Assembly (NCBI GenBank): GCA_002632265.1
Contig: NQOV01000007.1
Location: forward strand, 55,583-119,582
DNA length: 64,000 nt
DNA from: Rhodospirillaceae bacterium MC!
Lineage (GTDB): Bacteria > Pseudomonadota > Alphaproteobacteria > MC1
Direction of reading: 5' to 3'
The notes below the pieces were generated by a model, which worked only from the letters and a program-made list of their open reading frames with translations, had not been told where the DNA came from and searched no databases. This document shows, piece by piece, positions 1,000-62,247 of the stretch (the stretch's first letter is position 1; each line of letters opens with the position of its first letter). A program made the translations under genes and the position numbers.

Positions 1000-3900
1000 T
1001 TACTTTTCCACAACAGTCATATTTTTAGGATCTAAAACGCTATTTTTTACTTTTAGATGTAAATGAATACTATAATAGTTAGAATACAATCTTGATAAAT
1101 TGGTTTCAATAAAATGAAGCTCTCTATTTTTAATGGGATGTTTTAGAACGTTTTTACCATATGTACTTTCGCACCCTTTGAGATTCTCACATGCTATGGC
1201 AGGCGTATCGGCGTTGCTTGTAAGGATATCTTTATTTATGATAATTTTCTTATTATTTTCATTAAAATCCTTTACCATAAGTAAGGAATAAAACTTGCGG
1301 AAAGCTTGTATGGGATAAACTTTTGTTTCAAGTTTACTATCGCCAAAGCTATGATCAGCTACAAGGACTATTTTAGTATTATCATAGATATCATTAGCCT
1401 TTAGCCAATCAATAAACTTCGAAATGTAACGAATAGTACATTTACCGCTTGTATAATGGGCGTTATTGGTGATACTACTATTGGGAGTATACAATGTTTG
1501 ATTATTAAAAGTATCAGGCAAACAAGTACTACTATTATAAGCATAAGGCGGATGGGTTAAGGTGGTTTGATAGAATTTAAATGTTGCTTGCTTGGAATTC
1601 GTATCACTAATATACGGCAATGAGGCTACAAAATTTAACTTATGAAAGATATATGAATAATCTTTATTTGATGTTAACCAATTACCACCATTATATATGT
1701 ATGGACGTATATAATAAGGAGCTATCTTGAAAATTGAAACCCACGCTACTTTTAACGGATTACTTGTTCTCTTATTTTTTAATAGCTCAACAGCTTGGGG
1801 AGATATCTTTTTCCAATAGGGTGTATAATCGGCATTTGCATTGGACCAATCTTCAATACAATTATCTATGAGATCCTTATATGAGTAGCAGTTTTTCCCT
1901 GCATATGCAAGCATTTGCGGTCTTACTAAGCTCGTATTATAATCATTATCCTTAAAGATTTTTAGCAGTCTTTTATATGATAGAACAAAATTACCTAATA
2001 TTGTACCTTTGCGTTCTTTATTTTGAATGTATGGTGTATATTTTAATCCGCCTACGATTCCATATAAGCCTGCATAAGTTCCTGCTCCTACGGATATACT
2101 ATTGGAATATAAGGTAAATCCTGTATAGCTATTTAGATAATTAAAATCTTCTTTGATCATTTGAGATACAAATTCGTTAGTAAAACCATCTGTCATAAAT
2201 ACAACAACGTTCTTCTTATCTTTGGAAAAACTTGTGGTATTCATGGACGGCGATCCCATTAGATTCTTAGATATTACCATATTATTCTTTACAGTGCGAA
2301 GTTTATTAAAGTTTGTTATGTTCACTTTGTAATATAATCCCGCTCCCACTGATACAATAAAAAGCAAAGCCACTACAGTTTTTAAGGATGTTAAATATTT
2401 TGATCTCGCAATAATTAAGGCCAGCAAAAAGAATCCTGAAAGTAATAGGATGTCTTTTAATATAGTGATTTTTGCGAATAATTTATTGGTATCATTAAAG
2501 GCAAATCCTGTCATTAACCCGTAATCTCCTTTAAATACAAAGGCATATACTAAAGCTGAAAATAGAAAGCCAAAACAAAATAAGCTAAAGGTCTTCAATA
2601 TCTTTTTAGGTAAGATGTTGTAAATCATCAATAAAATAAAAACAATAACTCCAGCAATGGGGAGAGTGGTATTCATTACCGCATCAGGTTGTAAATCGAA
2701 TGCGGTTTTGTCGTTACTCATTAGGGAAAAAGGAAAATACCAAAACAATATGCTTGATAATGATAAAAGCGACAGCAAAAACAAACTAAAATATTTATGA
2801 ACACTCTCTTTATGTATATTATCTTTATGTATATTATCTTTATGAACACTATCTTTATCAACCATAATTCCATAAGCTCGCACGAGCCATAGACCATTGA
2901 TAATATTAAATATTAGTTCTATCCCTAAGATATCACGGCGATAAGCGTTGATATTCCCAACTCCATAAAATAGTAAATATACATGAATGAATAATAGAAC
3001 GATAATAATAAAATTTAGAATCGCTAAAACAATACAAGTTGTATTTTTCTTAAAATTAAAAAGAAACTGACCCAAACCACAAACAAAAAATACGGATAAT
3101 ATCAAAATTATTGAATTGTAATTGGATACATACTTAGGCGTTGCCGTAGTTACGGTAAATATGGTGTAAGATAAAGCAAAAAACAACACTAACAGACTAA
3201 AAGATATGGCTAGAAAAAGGTTAGAGTAAATAAAATTCTCACTAATATAATCTAACAATCTCTCGCCTTTTTTCCCTTTTAAATGGACTTGTGTATTAAC
3301 TGGCGAAGATATTTTGCCTTGTGTATTTTGCTTTCTAGATCTGTATTGATCCAGCATGTTATAAACGATATTTTTCCCTAAAGAGAAGATATTATTTAAA
3401 GTCCAATATAAAACCAAGGCCACAGGGGAATTATATAATAATACTAGAAATAAAATTGAGAGAACCCACAATTGGATCTTGTCTTTTTTGCCGAGGTTTT
3501 TTGTGTAGATATAAGCACTGGCGATGTTAATAACTGTCATTAATATGGGCATAACATTTATATGGAAGTTGGCAATAGATATCAAGTTATCAGGTTTTGC
3601 CAGATCCTTAAATATCATGAATGACACGCCATTTAAGGCAGTATAATGGCTTAACAAATGGTAAGCAGAAAAGAAAAATGGTACTTGAATTAAAAAACCA
3701 AAGCTTGTACGCACGGCCATAATTGGATGATATTTGTGTAATTTATAAATAAAATTCATCATCATCATACGTTCTTGTTTTATGAAGTTCTCTTTTACGA
3801 AATCCACTTCGCTTTTCATTTTTGCTTGGATAGAACGTTCGGAATTCTGCCACACTTCGGCAAGATTATACAAAGGCAACAGGATAATATTCACAACAAG

Positions 3901-4011
3901 ACTTAAAATAATAATCGCCACACCGTAAGATAAAAAGGCAATATAAGATTTTTTTAGTACTAAATCCATGATCAATTCTAGCGGTGCGATTAATAATAAA
4001 TATAAAAACAT
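1000..4011 (-). CDS. Fusion protein. It has an N-terminal YidC/Oxa1-family insertase core (~230 aa), a central polytopic membrane domain with a (KDNIH)x2 repeat, and a C-terminal extracytoplasmic LtaS/MdoB-like sulfatase (alkaline phosphatase superfamily) domain.
   Basis: The N-terminus matches the YidC core (…PLYNLAEVWQNSERSIQ…MQ…FGFLIQVPFFFSAYHLL…PVALVLYWTLNNIFSLGKNIVYN). The C-terminus has the sulfatase/LtaS pattern (KKNVVVFMTDGFTNEF … VLVADHSFGD). Multiple hydrophobic helices lie between. It is a single uninterrupted 1003-aa ORF. Confidence 0.6.
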   Translation of the reverse strand: MFLYLLLIAPLELIMDLVLKKSYIAFLSYGVAIIILSLVVNIILLPLYNLAEVWQNSERSIQAKMKSEVDFVKENFIKQERMMMMNFIYKLHKYHPIMAVRTSFGFLIQVPFFFSAYHLLSHYTALNGVSFMIFKDLAKPDNLISIANFHINVMPILMTVINIASAYIYTKNLGKKDKIQLWVLSILFLVLLYNSPVALVLYWTLNNIFSLGKNIVYNMLDQYRSRKQNTQGKISSPVNTQVHLKGKKGERLLDYISENFIYSNLFLAISFSLLVLFFALSYTIFTVTTATPKYVSNYNSIILILSVFFVCGLGQFLFNFKKNTTCIVLAILNFIIIVLLFIHVYLLFYGVGNINAYRRDILGIELIFNIINGLWLVRAYGIMVDKDSVHKDNIHKDNIHKESVHKYFSLFLLSLLSLSSILFWYFPFSLMSNDKTAFDLQPDAVMNTTLPIAGVIVFILLMIYNILPKKILKTFSLFCFGFLFSALVYAFVFKGDYGLMTGFAFNDTNKLFAKITILKDILLLSGFFLLALIIARSKYLTSLKTVVALLFIVSVGAGLYYKVNITNFNKLRTVKNNMVISKNLMGSPSMNTTSFSKDKKNVVVFMTDGFTNEFVSQMIKEDFNYLNSYTGFTLYSNSISVGAGTYAGLYGIVGGLKYTPYIQNKERKGTILGNFVLSYKRLLKIFKDNDYNTSLVRPQMLAYAGKNCYSYKDLIDNCIEDWSNANADYTPYWKKISPQAVELLKNKRTSNPLKVAWVSIFKIAPYYIRPYIYNGGNWLTSNKDYSYIFHKLNFVASLPYISDTNSKQATFKFYQTTLTHPPYAYNSSTCLPDTFNNQTLYTPNSSITNNAHYTSGKCTIRYISKFIDWLKANDIYDNTKIVLVADHSFGDSKLETKVYPIQAFRKFYSLLMVKDFNENNKKIIINKDILTSNADTPAIACENLKGCESTYGKNVLKHPIKNRELHFIETNLSRLYSNYYSIHLHLKVKNSVLDPKNMTVVEK

Positions 4012-4049: not shown

Positions 4050-5348
4050 TTATTGTGAGCGGTGTTCGTCATAGAGTTTCATTAAAGTATCGGCGGCCAC
4101 CTTTGCCACATTTCCGTAATTATATAAACTTTTATTACGTAATTTTGCGATGTTTTCCTTAAAGTTTTGATTAGCCAATAAGTCGGAAATAACATCCGTG
4201 ATATTATCTATTTCTTTTAAGGATATTTGCTGACCCATGTCATTTAATATGCCCAATTCCCAAGCATTTTTCCCTAAGAAGTGGCCATCAGTACCGCCCC
4301 AATTGGCTTTAAATTTCATAGTAATTACAGGCTTTTGGAAAACAAAAGCATAATCAAAAATCACGCCAGACATATCAGAGATCATTATATGGCTATTCAT
4401 TAAGACATGAAAATTATCAGCCGAGTTATCCCATTCTAGATTTTCAAAGGATTTAAGATCATCTTTTATGCTCGCTATCATCTCGGATTCGGAAATAAAA
4501 CTCTGCGGATGAGGACGAATAATAACTTTATGCCCTGTTTCTAGTATACTTTTTATGAAATTCGAGCCGAACATTTTCAACAAGCCATTATTTCCCCATG
4601 TGGGAGCGATGAGAATGGTCTTAGTTTGCTCATTGGCTATAACAGGAGCTTTGTAATTCTTGATTCTTTCTTGTAATTCATCCATATATGGAACACCTAC
4701 ATTATAGATATCTTTCTTTTTAGTATCTCTTAAGCTTTCCAACTTACGTAAATTTATGCTTTGATGTTCGCCACTTACCATGATACTATCATAGCAATCA
4801 AAGGAAAAAAGCTTATACAAGGCAACATCTGTACAGGCATGAAAAATATAAGTATAATGTTTCACGCCACGGGATTTTTTAATCTGTAACACATCCAAGC
4901 CCGGAGTGGTTGAGACGAAAATATCGGCCTCGAGCATATTTAAAGTGATAAATGCCGAATTGCCTGTGCCTATATATACGCTCTCCACTAGCTCGGAAGA
5001 GAATTTTAAGCCTAAATCCTGCTCATCGGAGCTAAGATAAGCACATTTTACATTACGGCGAGATAATTCTTCAATGATTGGCTTGAAAGTATGCCAATAC
5101 TGTCCACCTTCCGAATAGAAAACAATAGAATATCGGCTTTTTTGCTTTACTTTTAGCCCAAAAAGACCCAAAACAAAGGATTTTATGTTATAATAAGTAT
5201 TTTTTAGCACGAAAAAAGTCGTTGCCACAATTCCCAAGATAGCCGAAAGTAACATACTTCCAGTACCAGGATCTAGATAAGCATATGAATTATTTATAAA
5301 TATACTCATATAGAATAAAGATAAAAAGGCAACAGATAAAATTTTCAT
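4050..5348 (-). CDS. CDP-glycerol glycerophosphotransferase family protein (TagF/TagB-like) with an N-terminal signal/TM segment.
   Basis: The motifs LIAPTWGNNG and IIRPHPQ match the TagF family motifs YAPTWR and HP. The gene sits in an operon with tagD. Confidence 0.65.
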   Translation of the reverse strand: MKILSVAFLSLFYMSIFINNSYAYLDPGTGSMLLSAILGIVATTFFVLKNTYYNIKSFVLGLFGLKVKQKSRYSIVFYSEGGQYWHTFKPIIEELSRRNVKCAYLSSDEQDLGLKFSSELVESVYIGTGNSAFITLNMLEADIFVSTTPGLDVLQIKKSRGVKHYTYIFHACTDVALYKLFSFDCYDSIMVSGEHQSINLRKLESLRDTKKKDIYNVGVPYMDELQERIKNYKAPVIANEQTKTILIAPTWGNNGLLKMFGSNFIKSILETGHKVIIRPHPQSFISESEMIASIKDDLKSFENLEWDNSADNFHVLMNSHIMISDMSGVIFDYAFVFQKPVITMKFKANWGGTDGHFLGKNAWELGILNDMGQQISLKEIDNITDVISDLLANQNFKENIAKLRNKSLYNYGNVAKVAADTLMKLYDEHRSQ

Positions 5349-33660: not shown

Positions 33661-34254
33661 TTACTTTAGGATTTCGTAGATTATGAATGCAACGATGATT
33701 AACAGGGAAAAAATTACTGTTAGTTTTACGAGATATTTGTGGATTATATGTTTGGCTTTTTTACCGAAGAAGTAGAAGATCAAGCCGATAAGAACGAATC
33801 TTAAGCCACGAGAGAAAAAGGATATAATAAAAAATAAAGGGAAAGACATTCCCATAAGACCCGAAAATATGGTAAATACTTTGTAGGGAATGGGGGTGAA
33901 TCCTGCTAGGAGCAGTAAAAGGATTCCCCAATGGGCGTATAATCCCTTAAGTTTTTCCATGTAGGGGGCTAGATGATATAAATTCACGATGTATCCGCCG
34001 ACAGTGTGCCATAAGTACATGCCGATCACATAACCGATAATTCCGCCCACAGCTGACGCAAATGTACATAAGAGAGAATAGTAAATTGCTTTCTTATTTT
34101 TTGCTAAGCACATGGGAATAAGCATAACATCGGGCGGTATGGGAAAAATAAAGGATTCGACAAAGGCCAGAAGAAAAAGCCAAATGGACGCACTTTTATA
34201 ACGAGACATCACAAGAAGTCTACAATAGATATTTCTGATAATTTTATTAAGCAT
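33661..34254 (-). CDS. DedA/YqaA-family (SNARE-associated domain) membrane protein.
   Basis: FLLAFVESFIFPIPPDVMLIPM motif. 197 aa, ~5 TM. Confidence 0.55.
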   Translation of the reverse strand: MLNKIIRNIYCRLLVMSRYKSASIWLFLLAFVESFIFPIPPDVMLIPMCLAKNKKAIYYSLLCTFASAVGGIIGYVIGMYLWHTVGGYIVNLYHLAPYMEKLKGLYAHWGILLLLLAGFTPIPYKVFTIFSGLMGMSFPLFFIISFFSRGLRFVLIGLIFYFFGKKAKHIIHKYLVKLTVIFSLLIIVAFIIYEILK

Positions 34255-34259
34255 AATTG

Positions 34260-34664
34260 TTATTTTTCACTTTCTACAAGTTCCTTTTGTAAGTCTTCTT
34301 CGGAGATGATTCCAATAAAGCGACTGTTGGATAAGCCATCCAATATATTTTTAATTTTCGGATCTTTTGAGATGTCTTCCAGTTGATCGGCTAAGATCTT
34401 TTGTTCTTGTTGCTTTATGGTTAAATCCCCTAAGCTGGGATCGCTTGAGAGAGAGATTTCCCACTTTTTAAAGGTTTGTTCTTGTAAAAATAGGGCTATG
34501 GATGTTTGCAAGCCGTTGGGGGCATTGGTTGCTAAACGATATTTAAAATATCCATTTTTAAATTCGATTACATGAATGAAACGCTCCATATTAGTACGCA
34601 ATATGGATTCTTTCTTAAGGCGTGCCAACTCTATCAGTTCGTGAAAACTAGATACGGTTGGCAC
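34260..34664 (-). CDS. dnaX: 134-aa ORF in the -1 frame directly abutting the dnaX stop. It is a probable C-terminal (tau-specific) segment of DnaX separated by a frame change. It starts at GTG.
   Basis: The ORF starts within gagTAGtaGTGcca, overlapping the dnaX stop. The -1 frame is open from the A5G5 run onward. The usual downstream gene ybaB is absent and this ORF does not resemble YbaB. Confidence 0.35.
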   Translation of the reverse strand: MPTVSSFHELIELARLKKESILRTNMERFIHVIEFKNGYFKYRLATNAPNGLQTSIALFLQEQTFKKWEISLSSDPSLGDLTIKQQEQKILADQLEDISKDPKIKNILDGLSNSRFIGIISEEDLQKELVESEK

Positions 34665-34666
34665 TA

Positions 34667-35866
34667 CTACTCCCCCTTTTTAGTGTCTCCTTGTTTCACT
34701 TGGATCATTTTTGCCAACTGTTCTGATGTGGGAAGAGTTGAAGCGTAAGATATTGTAATCAAAGCCATTTCTAAAGCTTGTAATTGGTTGGGTGCAGAAT
34801 TTACATCCTGTAAGGATTTAAGTAACATTTGCCATAATCTTGCAAGCTCGGCAATGTTGATTTTATTGGATATTTCTTGCCCCTTTTCCAGATCCATACC
34901 ACTGGGGATATTTTCTCCTGCAAGCTGTGGCGAGACTTTAATTTTAGTCAGCCAATGAATGACAATTAAAAGATCTCGAATCACTACAATTGGCGAAATA
35001 CCTTGAGCGTATTGGGCATTTACCATTTCTAGCACTTGCGAGATCTCGCCAGAACTAAGCTTTTTAAATATTTCTATAATGATTCGACGATCGATGGCCC
35101 CGAGCATATTCATAACCACTTCTTCAGTAACATTATTAGCTCCATAGGATATGGCCTGATCCAGTAAAGATAAGCCATCACGTACAGATCCGTCAGAAGA
35201 TTGGGCGATCATGTTGATTGCTTGTTCTTCAAAGGGGATATCTTCCTTTTGCAAGATACTTTCGAAGTGTTTTTTTAGAGTTGGAACTTCTATACGGCGT
35301 AAATCAAAGCACTGGCAACGGCTTAAAACTGTTACGGGTACTTTTTGAATATCTGTAGTAGCCAAGATAAATTTCACGTGTGCGGGCGGTTCTTCTAAGG
35401 TCTTAAGGAGAGCGTTAAAAGATGATGTGGATAACATGTGAACCTCATCGATCACATATATTTTAAAACGTGCCGACGCTGTGGAATAACTTGTGTCATC
35501 TAAAATACTTCTGATGTTATCGATCCCTGTATTGGATGCGGCGTCGATCTCTAAAACATCCACATTCTGTCCTTTTGATATGGATGTACAATGTTCACAG
35601 ACACCGCAAGGATCTATGGTAATTTTGCCCTTACCGTCTTCGCCGATACAATTTAAGGATTTCGCAATTAATCTTGCGGTGGTGGTTTTCCCCACACCAC
35701 GGATTCCTGTAAGCATGAAAGAATGCACCAAACGTCCTGTATCTATGGCATTTGATAGGGTACGCACTAAAGCATCTTGACCAATTAAATCATGAAATGT
35801 CGACGGACGATATTTTCTCGCCAATACTTGATATTCATGATTATTTTCCTGCTGTTGATCAGTCAT
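34667..35866 (-). CDS. dnaX: DNA polymerase III subunit gamma/tau (gamma-length product, domains I-III).
   Basis: YRPSTFHDLIGQD, Walker A GIRGVGKTTTARLIAKSLNC, Zn module CGVCEHC, SRC motif. Confidence 0.9.
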   Translation of the reverse strand: MTDQQQENNHEYQVLARKYRPSTFHDLIGQDALVRTLSNAIDTGRLVHSFMLTGIRGVGKTTTARLIAKSLNCIGEDGKGKITIDPCGVCEHCTSISKGQNVDVLEIDAASNTGIDNIRSILDDTSYSTASARFKIYVIDEVHMLSTSSFNALLKTLEEPPAHVKFILATTDIQKVPVTVLSRCQCFDLRRIEVPTLKKHFESILQKEDIPFEEQAINMIAQSSDGSVRDGLSLLDQAISYGANNVTEEVVMNMLGAIDRRIIIEIFKKLSSGEISQVLEMVNAQYAQGISPIVVIRDLLIVIHWLTKIKVSPQLAGENIPSGMDLEKGQEISNKINIAELARLWQMLLKSLQDVNSAPNQLQALEMALITISYASTLPTSEQLAKMIQVKQGDTKKGE

Positions 35867-44603: not shown

Positions 44604-45551
44604 TTATTCATCTTCCCCATTATCTATCCCTATGATACTATGGGCGAAGTCTTTGGCTTGGAAGCCTCGTAAGTCGTCGGCTTGTTCGCCGACGCCGATG
44701 GCGTGGATTGGTAAGTGGAATTTGTCGGCTAGGGATACGACTATCCCGCCTTTTGCTGTGCCGTCTAGTTTGGTTATGATTAGGCCTGTGGTGTTAACGG
44801 CTTTGGCGAAGATTTCCACTTGGTTCATGGCGTTTTGTCCTGCGGTGGCGTCGAGAACTTGAACGGTGGAATGGGGGGCGTCTGGGAGAAGTTTTTGGAT
44901 TACTCTTTGGACTTTGGTTAGCTCATCCATTAAGTGTTGTTGATTGTGCAAACGTCCTGCTGTATCGATGATTAAGATATCGTATTTGCCGTCTATGGCT
45001 TGCTCTAGGGCCTCGAATGCTACGGATGCGGAATCTGTTCCCTCGGGTTTGCGGATAACAGGGCAACCAGTTTTTAAGCCCCATACCTTTAATTGTTCCA
45101 CGGCGGCGGCTCTAAAGGTATCGCCTGCGGCAAGCATTACCATATGCCCAGCCGTACGCCAATGGCGGGCCAGTTTGCCGATAGTGGTGGTTTTTCCGCT
45201 ACCATTTACGCCAGTTACAAGCAATACATAGGGGGTTTTGGTTTTGATCTCGTCCATATCGAAAGGTTTGGCTATGGGAGTAAGGATTTCTTCAATTCTA
45301 TGGGAAAGAAATTCTTTAATATCGTGATCGCTCACTTCTTTTTCAAAGCGAGTTTTTGCGAATTCGTCCACTAATTTGGTAGCGGTAACAGCTCCAAGAT
45401 CAGCCATGATCAAGATATCCACCAGATCATCAATGGCCGCTTGATCTAGCACTCTTTTACCAAATACGCTACTGATATTTCTATTTAATTTAGAACTTGT
45501 TTGAGAAAGTCCTTGTTTAAGTCTTTTAAACCATGTGTTTTTTTCAATCAT
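44604..45551 (-). CDS. ftsY: Signal recognition particle receptor FtsY (short form, NG domain only).
   Basis: GVNGSGKTTTIGKLA, DTAGR, and a GTPase G4/G5 pattern. 315 aa. Confidence 0.9.
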   Translation of the reverse strand: MIEKNTWFKRLKQGLSQTSSKLNRNISSVFGKRVLDQAAIDDLVDILIMADLGAVTATKLVDEFAKTRFEKEVSDHDIKEFLSHRIEEILTPIAKPFDMDEIKTKTPYVLLVTGVNGSGKTTTIGKLARHWRTAGHMVMLAAGDTFRAAAVEQLKVWGLKTGCPVIRKPEGTDSASVAFEALEQAIDGKYDILIIDTAGRLHNQQHLMDELTKVQRVIQKLLPDAPHSTVQVLDATAGQNAMNQVEIFAKAVNTTGLIITKLDGTAKGGIVVSLADKFHLPIHAIGVGEQADDLRGFQAKDFAHSIIGIDNGEDE

Positions 45552-51518: not shown

Positions 51519-51530
51519 TTTTCTCACTCC

Positions 51531-51566
51531 TTAGTTCTTTCTAGATTAGTTCTTTCTAGATTAGTT
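51531..51566. repeat. Two and a fraction tandem 15-bp units (ttagttctttctaga) between ispD and ispF.
   Basis: Direct reading of 51528..51570. Confidence 0.55.
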
Positions 51567-53975: not shown

Positions 53976-55115
53976 ATGACAACACTAAACACAGATCTAT
54001 TATTGGCAAATATATCAGACGGTATTATTATAACCACTGCAAGCGGAGAGATCGTAAGCTACAATCTTACCGCTTGCGTATTTATAGATCCTGATATGAA
54101 AATGTTAAAAACAGGGCAAAATATTCATGACAATATGGACTCCTTTAAGGACGTATGGGACGATCTTTTTAAACCGCCATACTTTGAAGATTTCTTCATG
54201 GAAGCTTACGGTAAAAATTTCAACATTCGTATTGTTGCCAATAATTATGATGATAATAACGAAGTTGAAGCCTTTTGTATTATTATAACTTTAGAACATC
54301 AAAATATGTATGCTAAAGATTATAATCAAGCTCTTGTTGAATCCAAAAATAAAGAAAATAAAGATCAGATCGCCAGCATTCAAAATAAAATCAATATTAT
54401 CAATCATGAACTTCAAAATGAGCTTTCATCAATTGGCTTAATCAATCAATCCTTAAAGGATAAAAACAAGGAAGATAAACACTATCAAGGCATAGAAAAT
54501 GCTTTAAATCAAATTAAATCCATATCGGAGAATCTAGAAGATATCAGCAAGCCCTTATATAATTTAGGGAGTGTTAGTAATATTGTAGAACTTGCTGGCG
54601 TTTCTCATGTGGCAAATGATAACACCAATGAAATCGAAGTGGAAAACTTCATCGCAGGTATTTTAGTTCTTGAACAAGCTCGAAATTTTTCCATTGATTA
54701 TGATCTTGATATGTCAGAATTTTCCCATAAAGAAGATCTTAAGATCCAAATGAATCCGCAAGCCTTAAGAACTGCACTTGTTAATATTTTAAAAAATGCA
54801 AGTGAAAGTATTAGCAATAATACGGACGATAATGTAAAAAATAACGGTAAAATTCTCATCAAGCCCCATGTGGATGATTCGGATAACTGCTTTAAAATCG
54901 ATATCACTAATAACGGTGGTAGCATGGATGAAAATCTAATTTTACAACTCAATGCAGGCGAGCAAATTAAATCAACAAAAATCCTAGGTAAAGGGATAGG
55001 TATTTCTCATGTTATCAATACCTTAATTCCTTATGCAGGTTCGTTGAAGTTTGTTAATTTATCGGAAACTAATGTGAAAATCTCGCTAAGTTTTCCTAAA
55101 ACTATAATATTATAA
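53976..55115 (+). CDS. Cytoplasmic sensor histidine kinase, NtrB-like (PAS + HisKA + HATPase_c), with no adjacent response regulator.
   Basis: N-terminal PAS-like segment (DGIIITTASGEIVSYN), H-box (HELQNELSSIG), N-box (NILKNASESI), and a G2-like box (GKGIGISHVIN). Confidence 0.55.
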   Translation: MTTLNTDLLLANISDGIIITTASGEIVSYNLTACVFIDPDMKMLKTGQNIHDNMDSFKDVWDDLFKPPYFEDFFMEAYGKNFNIRIVANNYDDNNEVEAFCIIITLEHQNMYAKDYNQALVESKNKENKDQIASIQNKINIINHELQNELSSIGLINQSLKDKNKEDKHYQGIENALNQIKSISENLEDISKPLYNLGSVSNIVELAGVSHVANDNTNEIEVENFIAGILVLEQARNFSIDYDLDMSEFSHKEDLKIQMNPQALRTALVNILKNASESISNNTDDNVKNNGKILIKPHVDDSDNCFKIDITNNGGSMDENLILQLNAGEQIKSTKILGKGIGISHVINTLIPYAGSLKFVNLSETNVKISLSFPKTIIL

Positions 55116-62069: not shown

Positions 62070-62146
62070 TGGTAGCGGAAGAGGGACTTGAACCCCCGAC
62101 ACGTGGATTATGATTCCACTGCTCTAACCAGCTGAGCTATTCCGCC
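62070..62146 (-). tRNA. tRNA with a CAU anticodon (tRNA-Met or lysidine-modified tRNA-Ile2), copy 1 of 2. CCA is encoded.
   Basis: The reverse complement is GGCGGAATAGCTCAGCTGGTTAGAGCAGTGGAATCATAATCCACGTGTCGGGGGTTCAAGTCCCTCTTCCGCTACCA. The anticodon stem is GTGGA/TCCAC and the loop ATCATAA. Confidence 0.8.
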
Positions 62147-62170: not shown

Positions 62171-62247
62171 TGGTAGCGGAAGAGGGACTTGAACCCCCGA
62201 CACGTGGATTATGATTCCACTGCTCTAACCAGCTGAGCTATTCCGCC
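62171..62247 (-). tRNA. tRNA with a CAU anticodon, identical tandem copy 2.
   Basis: Sequence identical to 62070..62146, separated by a 24-bp spacer. Confidence 0.8.

Follow-up and report, generated by a model that had tools for sequence, protein, structure and literature searches.

A putative programmed -1 frameshift cassette of reversed polarity in an alphaproteobacterial dnaX gene

How is a tau subunit to be made when the reading frame of dnaX closes before the polymerase-binding domain has been reached? The question is raised by a locus on the minus strand of a 64-kb stretch (64,000 nt) of contig NQOV01000007.1, hereafter the window, whose positions serve as coordinates throughout. Here dnaX is one gene spread over two frames (34260..35866, -). 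A 399-aa open reading frame in the 0 frame (ORF1, 34667..35866, -) is followed by a 134-aa ORF in the -1 frame (ORF2, as listed 34260..34664, -), and the -1 shift that would join them lies at 34679..34673. A preliminary description of this DNA left programmed frameshifting, transcriptional slippage and an indel side by side as explanations. Of these, the programmed option is best supported, by a slippery heptamer, a downstream hairpin, an upstream Shine-Dalgarno (SD)-like hexamer, tandem stop codons and the lack of any other broken gene detected in the window. We put the probability of a programmed -1 ribosomal frameshift cassette of reversed polarity, in which the 0 frame gives gamma and the shift gives tau, at roughly 65%.

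The identity of the two halves is clear. ORF1 carries the clamp-loader domains I-III of the DnaX family, as had been proposed from the bare sequence, with Pfam matches to DNA_pol3_delta2 (PF13177, 1.6e-37), DNAX_ATPase_lid (PF22608, 1e-19) and DNA_pol3_gamma3 (PF12169, 1e-37) and a score of 424.7 bits to TIGR02397 (dnaX_nterm, cutoff 250). ORF2 had been judged unlike YbaB and a possible tau extension, and it does belong to the tau C-terminal family: it matches PF12362 ('DNA polymerase III gamma and tau subunits C terminal') at E=1.9e-18 and aligns at positions 474-595 of the 616 in NF006585. The latter, an equivalog of alphaproteobacterial DnaX, is also the best-fitting model for the whole fused protein, which scores above its cutoff (671.8 bits, cutoff 604) and in which the tau C-terminal domain is continuous with domains I-III. 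Moreover, single-frame relatives align collinearly with the fused protein, and the frame break falls in the variable linker 3′ of domain III, which is unusually short in this gene. Both the nearest DnaX model and the relatives mark the gene as alphaproteobacterial. The confidently predicted structure of ORF2 (mean pLDDT 86.7, from an alignment of 24 sequences) found its best match among 48,164 chains in domain V of E. coli tau complexed with alpha; a Foldseek search with the model gave sub-threshold matches only, three of which were E. coli tau domain V. By profile match and modelled fold, ORF2 is thus predicted to encode the module that binds the polymerase in E. coli.

The two frames meet at a run of five A and five G residues (A5G5, 34681..34672), the sole AAAAAGGGGG in the 64 kb. 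ORF1 (35866..34667) finishes ACT AAA AAG GGG GAG TAG TAG, its product ending ...GDTKKGE, and the -1 frame reads CAC TAA AAA GGG GGA GTA GTA GTG CCA across the same bases. As first described, the -1 frame is closed by a TAA directly 5′ of the run (34682..34680, -) and is open 3′ of it, from 34679 and for 139 codons. Because of this TAA, a productive shift is confined to the run itself. The GTG listed as the start of ORF2 does lie in the stop region, at 34664, and the ORF closes with a TAA at 34262..34260. A -1 shift within the A5G5 run yields a fused product of 535 aa, close to the ~530 aa that had been anticipated; the tau peptide predicted to span the junction is ...KGGVVVPTVSSFHELIELAR, and the diagnostic tryptic peptide predicted for tau is GGVVVPTVSSFHELIELAR.

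Inside the run lies a canonical X_XXY_YYZ heptamer, A_AAG_GGG (34673..34679, -), in phase with the 0 frame, its first base being a third codon position. The resemblance to A_AAA_AAG that had been suggested earlier does not hold for the in-phase site. The heptamer is built of minority codons, AAG being used for 23% of Lys and GGG for 12% of Gly in the window. In E. coli, A_AA.G_GG.G is listed with the 15 best motifs for -1 shifting and gives 'high level frameshifting' (Sharma et al. 2014, PMC4066793). One codon past the heptamer the 0 frame meets tandem stops, TAG TAG (34664..34669, -), which terminate gamma. Against the background, this is a rare feature, tandem stops in that off-frame occurring at 0.64% of positions.

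A putative 3′ stimulatory stem-loop (34664..34622, -; 43 nt, three stacked helices totalling 17 bp) follows the heptamer after a spacer of 8 nt. Its basal stem is a perfect helix of 8 bp (GUGCCAAC/GUUGGCAC). The usual spacing between heptamer and stem-loop is 5-9 nt. The hairpin folds at -20.1 kcal/mol, compared with -4.4 +/- 3.0 kcal/mol for 17,849 coding-strand segments of the same length, which places it in the top 0.03%; two other loci in the 55.9 kb of coding strand are equally stable. It is also the strongest structure 3′ of any in-phase heptamer in the window genes (n=164), leading the next-best context (-13.6 kcal/mol) by 6.5 kcal/mol. Moreover, the peptide VPTVSSFHELIELAR was re-encoded 5,000 times by the codon usage of the window and each version was folded. 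None of the 5,000 synonymous recodings was as stable as the observed sequence (-21.8 kcal/mol, against a mean of -4.7 and a best of -18.5), and the structure is therefore written into synonymous codon choices. The other two equally stable hairpins (44645..44715, -, and 54026..54096, +; -20.6 and -22.6 kcal/mol) sit within ORFs 44604..45551 and 53976..55115, respectively. An intrinsic terminator was considered for the dnaX hairpin and rejected, the structure having no T-tail and not being called as a terminator. Rfam gave no relevant match in the window at the gathering threshold and none on 34560..34760 at E<=10.

A possible 5′ stimulator is present as well, in the form of an SD-like AAGGAG (34692..34687, -) that stands 7 nt 5′ of the heptamer. 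Strong SD hexamers are rare here, numbering six in all on the 55.9 kb of coding strand. The preliminary description was right about the site but overlooked both this hexamer and the hairpin. With the match of ORF2 to the tau C-terminal family at E=1.9e-18 and a hairpin in the top 0.03%, the arrangement exceeds chance.

In a programmed cassette of this kind, in-frame ribosomes would read AAA AAG GGG GAG and stop at TAG TAG, releasing a 399-aa gamma-like subunit. A fraction of ribosomes would be stalled by the 17-bp stem-loop 8 nt downstream, with AAG and GGG in the P and A sites, whereupon tRNA-Lys and tRNA-Gly could re-pair one base back, onto AAA and GGG. The shifted ribosomes would go on through GGA GTA GTA GTG CCA..., adding 134 further codons, and the outcome would be a tau of 535 aa, ending in a domain with the predicted fold of domain V, which binds Pol III alpha. 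We infer that such shifting occurs, that it is ribosomal, that it is efficient enough to supply an essential tau and that AAGGAG aids it.

The change of frame might instead take place in transcription, with RNA polymerase realigning on A5G5 and adding one base in some mRNAs, from which tau would be made. There is precedent in that Thermus dnaX slips on A9, most known two-ORF dnaX genes have A7-A10, and realignment motifs can be 'combinations of two shorter homopolymers' (PMC3711429); two other alphaproteobacterial loci described below, L017 (A11) and L018 (A9), look to be of the slippage type. However, the runs here are of 5 nt each, whereas at least 8 are usually needed (PMC3711429), and a Thermus-type homopolymer of at least 8 nt is absent, there being A5 and then G5 only. 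The heptamer, by comparison, lies in exact phase for tandem tRNA re-pairing. Slippage is promoted by hairpins of the nascent RNA that lie 5′ of the site. At this site the strong structure is 3′ and at the spacing of a ribosomal stimulator, and the 79 nt 5′ of the shift site fold weakly (-7.6 kcal/mol). We consider a transcriptional origin of tau quite improbable.

The hairpin also bears on whether the two ORFs are joined at all. Under gene fission, a separate 134-aa protein of 15 kDa would be made by termination-reinitiation at the GTG at 34664, from the ribosome-binding site GGGGGAG. This motif is indeed placed 5 nt 5′ of the GTG, which overlaps the second stop codon, and the NCBI record has the two ORFs as separate proteins. 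Stand-alone C-terminal ORFs with a Met start also occur in public protein sets, although these may be contig-edge fragments or frameshift products of the same kind. However, the GTG forms the first base pair of the -20 kcal/mol hairpin, which would occlude initiation. In the E. coli replisome, a free domain V would compete for alpha and cannot hold polymerase and clamp loader together. By that biology the separate protein would not do the tethering job of tau, and fission strikes us as very improbable indeed.

Several points weigh against a programmed cassette. We found no close relative in the collections searched, which comprised genomes, metagenomes, word-indexed proteins (with the fused protein and with ORF2) and an exhaustive HMMER search with ORF2: the best matches reached 57% for the N-terminal part, 48% for the full length and 37% for ORF2, and in the word-indexed search ORF2 alone matched only itself. 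Conservation of the cassette among relatives would be the usual proof that a site is programmed. NCBI is the sole recorded source of both ORFs, which are on the same two contigs there and perhaps come from one assembly. SD elements stimulate -1 shifts at a spacing of 9-14 nt (PMC5009743), and the 7 nt seen here is below that range, leaving the role of AAGGAG uncertain. A natural A_AAG_GGG site of E. coli with a weak hairpin gives merely 0.57% shifting (PMC4066793); the efficiency figures for this heptamer come from E. coli, and context matters. A tRNA-Lys(UUU) as the sole isoacceptor for Lys favours slippage on A_AAG, but the tRNA genes of the window (Tyr, Cys and two Met) are uninformative on Lys and Gly decoding. 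Tau is essential in E. coli, and so the shift would need to be efficient. Lastly, a 1-nt deletion in an ancestral A6G5 or A5G6 would automatically yield the in-phase heptamer, and the heptamer alone therefore cannot separate a programmed site from an indel.

The run length may itself be wrong. If an assembly or sequencing error had shortened a true A6G5 or A5G6, dnaX would be a single-frame tau gene like those of nearly all its relatives: of the genome loci that could be followed to a stop, 73 of 75 have one frame, and so do all metagenome loci not cut by a contig end. The break falls exactly where two homopolymers abut, a classic site of indel error. No other contig encoding the 399-aa protein was found, and with it no independent replicate of the run length. 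Against this, the window (35% GC, 87% coding) contains 171 A/T runs (6-9 nt) and 37 G/C runs (5-6 nt), 36 of the latter besides the one at the break, and no other gene was seen to be broken by them. Adjacent same-strand ORF pairs were checked with Pfam, the matched profiles were near-completely covered, and no other split gene was detected in the window. An assembly prone to homopolymer errors is therefore unlikely. A 5-nt run is also short for a homopolymer error. Whatever the length of the run, the hairpin, the SD-like hexamer and the tandem stops would all be there, and each is improbable on its own; tandem stops right after the site would be meaningless in a frame that is never read. Taken together, an error appears unlikely. 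Were the true run A5G6, A_AAG_GGG would still stand in phase before the hairpin, and the cassette would then be of E. coli polarity.

If the run length is correct, it may still reflect an unprogrammed recent indel in an essential gene, tolerated through low-level spontaneous slippage that supplies just enough tau. Slippage is known to rescue indels adventitiously, for example at poly(A) tracts in insect endosymbionts (reviewed in PMC5009743). ORF2 is fully intact, as fits a very recent event, and a pair of related loci, L017 (A11, split) and L010 (A10, intact), suggest that such indels occur at this spot. However, none of the other genes tested in the window is split, and besides its dense coding the window encodes a chemoreceptor, transporters, XerC and DegP, among others. 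The coding density, the intact genes and the presence of a chemoreceptor and transporters argue against a decaying genome. Moreover, an indel leaves unexplained a hairpin that depends on synonymous choices and stands at the right spacing, together with the SD-like hexamer and the tandem stops. We regard this explanation as improbable, and a programmed cassette as the reading that best accounts for the site.

Among 160 related loci, a genuinely split dnaX was found in L017 and L018 only, other short ORFs being contig-end artefacts. Both break at the same linker position as the window gene, at A11 and A9 runs respectively, and in each the continuation frame has a TAA just 5′ of the run. A strong hairpin is absent from both, and they look like the poly-A type. 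L018 comes from a metagenome-assembled genome (MAG) of Micavibrio sp., an alphaproteobacterial predator lineage. At its A9 run (4186..4194) the 0 frame gives V K K K L and then a stop, and the -1 frame carries tau on for 151 codons, an architecture as in the published poly-A two-ORF dnaX genes. L017 is split at its A11 run (4143..4153) with tau in the +1 frame, and L010 is single-frame at an A10 run near 4160. These two are rumen alphaproteobacterial MAGs, near-identical around the run and one A apart. The difference may be an artefact of assembly, or else polarity may have flipped naturally at a run prone to slippage. The ORF after tau in L017 and L018 starts Met-/Gln-rich and is YbaB-like by eye only; in the window the 3′ neighbour of dnaX (33661..34254, -) encodes a DedA/VTT-domain membrane protein and not ybaB-recR.

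Signals of recoding type are found at the same spot in other alphaproteobacterial dnaX genes. Ten loci (L027, L028, L029, L049, L053, L068, L078, L125, L126 and L129), from Hyphomonas, Hyphobacterium and Hyphomonadaceae-type genomes, have a single-frame dnaX with an in-phase C_CCA_AAG or G_GGA_AAG (at locus positions 4173, 4179, 2632, 4152, 4152, 4164, 4173, 3652, 3652 and 3664, respectively), placed at residue 395-402, just past domain III. At these sites a -1-frame TGA follows 1-3 codons on, a GGAGG- or GGGG-rich element lies ~13 nt upstream, and the downstream structure is above the local average, a fraction of 0.01-0.35 of background segments being as stable. Judged from sequence, this looks like a dnaX frameshift cassette of E. 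coli polarity in Alphaproteobacteria; a literature search returned no paper pairing Hyphomonas with dnaX. A further eight loci (L001, L005, L007, L024, L036, L072, L083 and L087) are AT-rich alphaproteobacterial dnaX genes whose linker after domain III (residues ~385-430) holds A8-A11 runs in frame, with off-frame stops 1-5 codons on; they are candidates for Thermus-like production of gamma by transcriptional slippage. Many stand-alone tau C-terminal proteins of 125-170 aa with a Met start were also seen (P0130, P0141, P0147, P0150, P0157, P0168, P0183, P0262 and others). One of them, P0157, begins MKKKT, directly after a Lys run. These proteins may be further cases of split dnaX or contig-edge fragments.

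The 0 frame giving gamma had been pointed out from the start and is borne out, but the reversed layout has been described before, from other bacteria (PMC3711429; PMC5009743). Two-ORF dnaX with a -1 transition at the DNA level has been reported for 17 genes in 12 genera, 12 of the 17 having A7-A10 runs and being assigned to transcriptional realignment (Antonov et al. 2013, PMC3711429). They constitute the GeneTack dnaX cluster of that survey (PMC3711429), recapped in Atkins et al. 2016 (PMC5009743), where polarity is said to be able to flip by a single nucleotide if shifting is near 50%. A ribosomal-type reversed case, in Chlorobium phaeobacteroides, is mentioned as unpublished only. The window locus shares with these genes the adjacent N- and C-terminal ORFs with a -1 transition, a 0-frame stop right after the shift-prone site that gives gamma, the need for a frame change to make tau, and a public record without recoding annotation. 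It differs in its heptamer (A_AAG_GGG), in its 3′ stimulator, a strong hairpin of ribosomal type, and in its taxon, being alphaproteobacterial. The two-ORF cases in the supplementary figure of the GeneTack survey belong to Chlorobi, Bacteroidetes and Verrucomicrobia.

With the programmed ribosomal frameshift (PRF) of E. coli dnaX at A_AAA_AAG, the window gene has in common the position of the site, between domain III and the C-terminal part, the order of SD-like element, X_XXY_YYZ heptamer and stem-loop, and a gamma-frame stop one codon past the site. However, the shift in the window gene makes tau and not gamma, the heptamer is A_AAG_GGG, the SD spacing is 7 nt rather than 10, and the stem has 17 bp rather than 11. 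Unlike the E. coli-type cassette, the locus matches no Rfam family. Slippage at A9 in Thermus thermophilus likewise gives gamma and tau from one gene through a frame change in the same region, but the window has A5 and G5 only and its structure is 3′; L017 and L018 are the loci that resemble Thermus. In Caulobacter crescentus, of the same class, gamma arises by proteolysis of tau (PMC5009743; bioRxiv 10.1101/2022.11.10.516041). There too the two DnaX forms share domains I-III, but the route is post-translational and the gene single-frame, whereas the forms of the window gene would be set at decoding. Our literature search found no description of a recoding-dependent tau in Alphaproteobacteria.

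Elsewhere in the window, IspD and IspF are separate genes. In many alphaproteobacteria ispDF is fused. The pair was considered as another split gene and rejected, there being stops between the two and an SD of its own before IspF. In the spacer between them (51528..51560, -), before the IspF SD, TCTAGAAAGAACTAA occurs twice in a row, a perfect tandem duplication of 15 nt. Two tRNA-Met (CAT) genes stand in tandem (62070..62146 and 62171..62247, -), 24 nt apart and with equal Rfam scores, and Rfam found no rRNA in the 64-kb window. For a 1003-aa ORF (1000..4011, -), the sole NCBIfam match at E<=1e-10 is to a YidC/Oxa1 C-terminal insertase domain and lies within the first ~220 residues, the other ~780 having none at that threshold.

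A broader reading, which we hold tentatively and at somewhat less than even odds, is that this is the first alphaproteobacterial dnaX whose essential tau depends obligatorily on efficient -1 ribosomal frameshifting, at a heptamer, A_AAG_GGG, new to dnaX, and that it is one of at least three independent recoding solutions at the same linker in Alphaproteobacteria. The three would be the reversed PRF of the window, the E. coli-polarity C_CCA_AAG or G_GGA_AAG of Hyphomonadaceae-type genomes, and poly-A slippage in AT-rich lineages. If the frameshift itself is confirmed, the protein record is wrong, giving a truncated DnaX and an orphan 134-aa protein in place of one recoded gene for gamma and tau. 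To specialists in recoding the locus would be no surprise, but it would give them a useful data point and a compact cassette for tests. It would be a natural example of an essential replisome subunit dependent on a frameshift, and such dependence would imply a high and tuned efficiency at a heptamer that is non-canonical for dnaX. Together with the other alphaproteobacterial cassettes, it would support selection on the tau:gamma ratio and a polarity that can flip by a single nucleotide (PMC5009743). Under the broader reading of three solutions, the gamma form would be selected far more widely in the class than the single known proteolytic route, that of Caulobacter, suggests.

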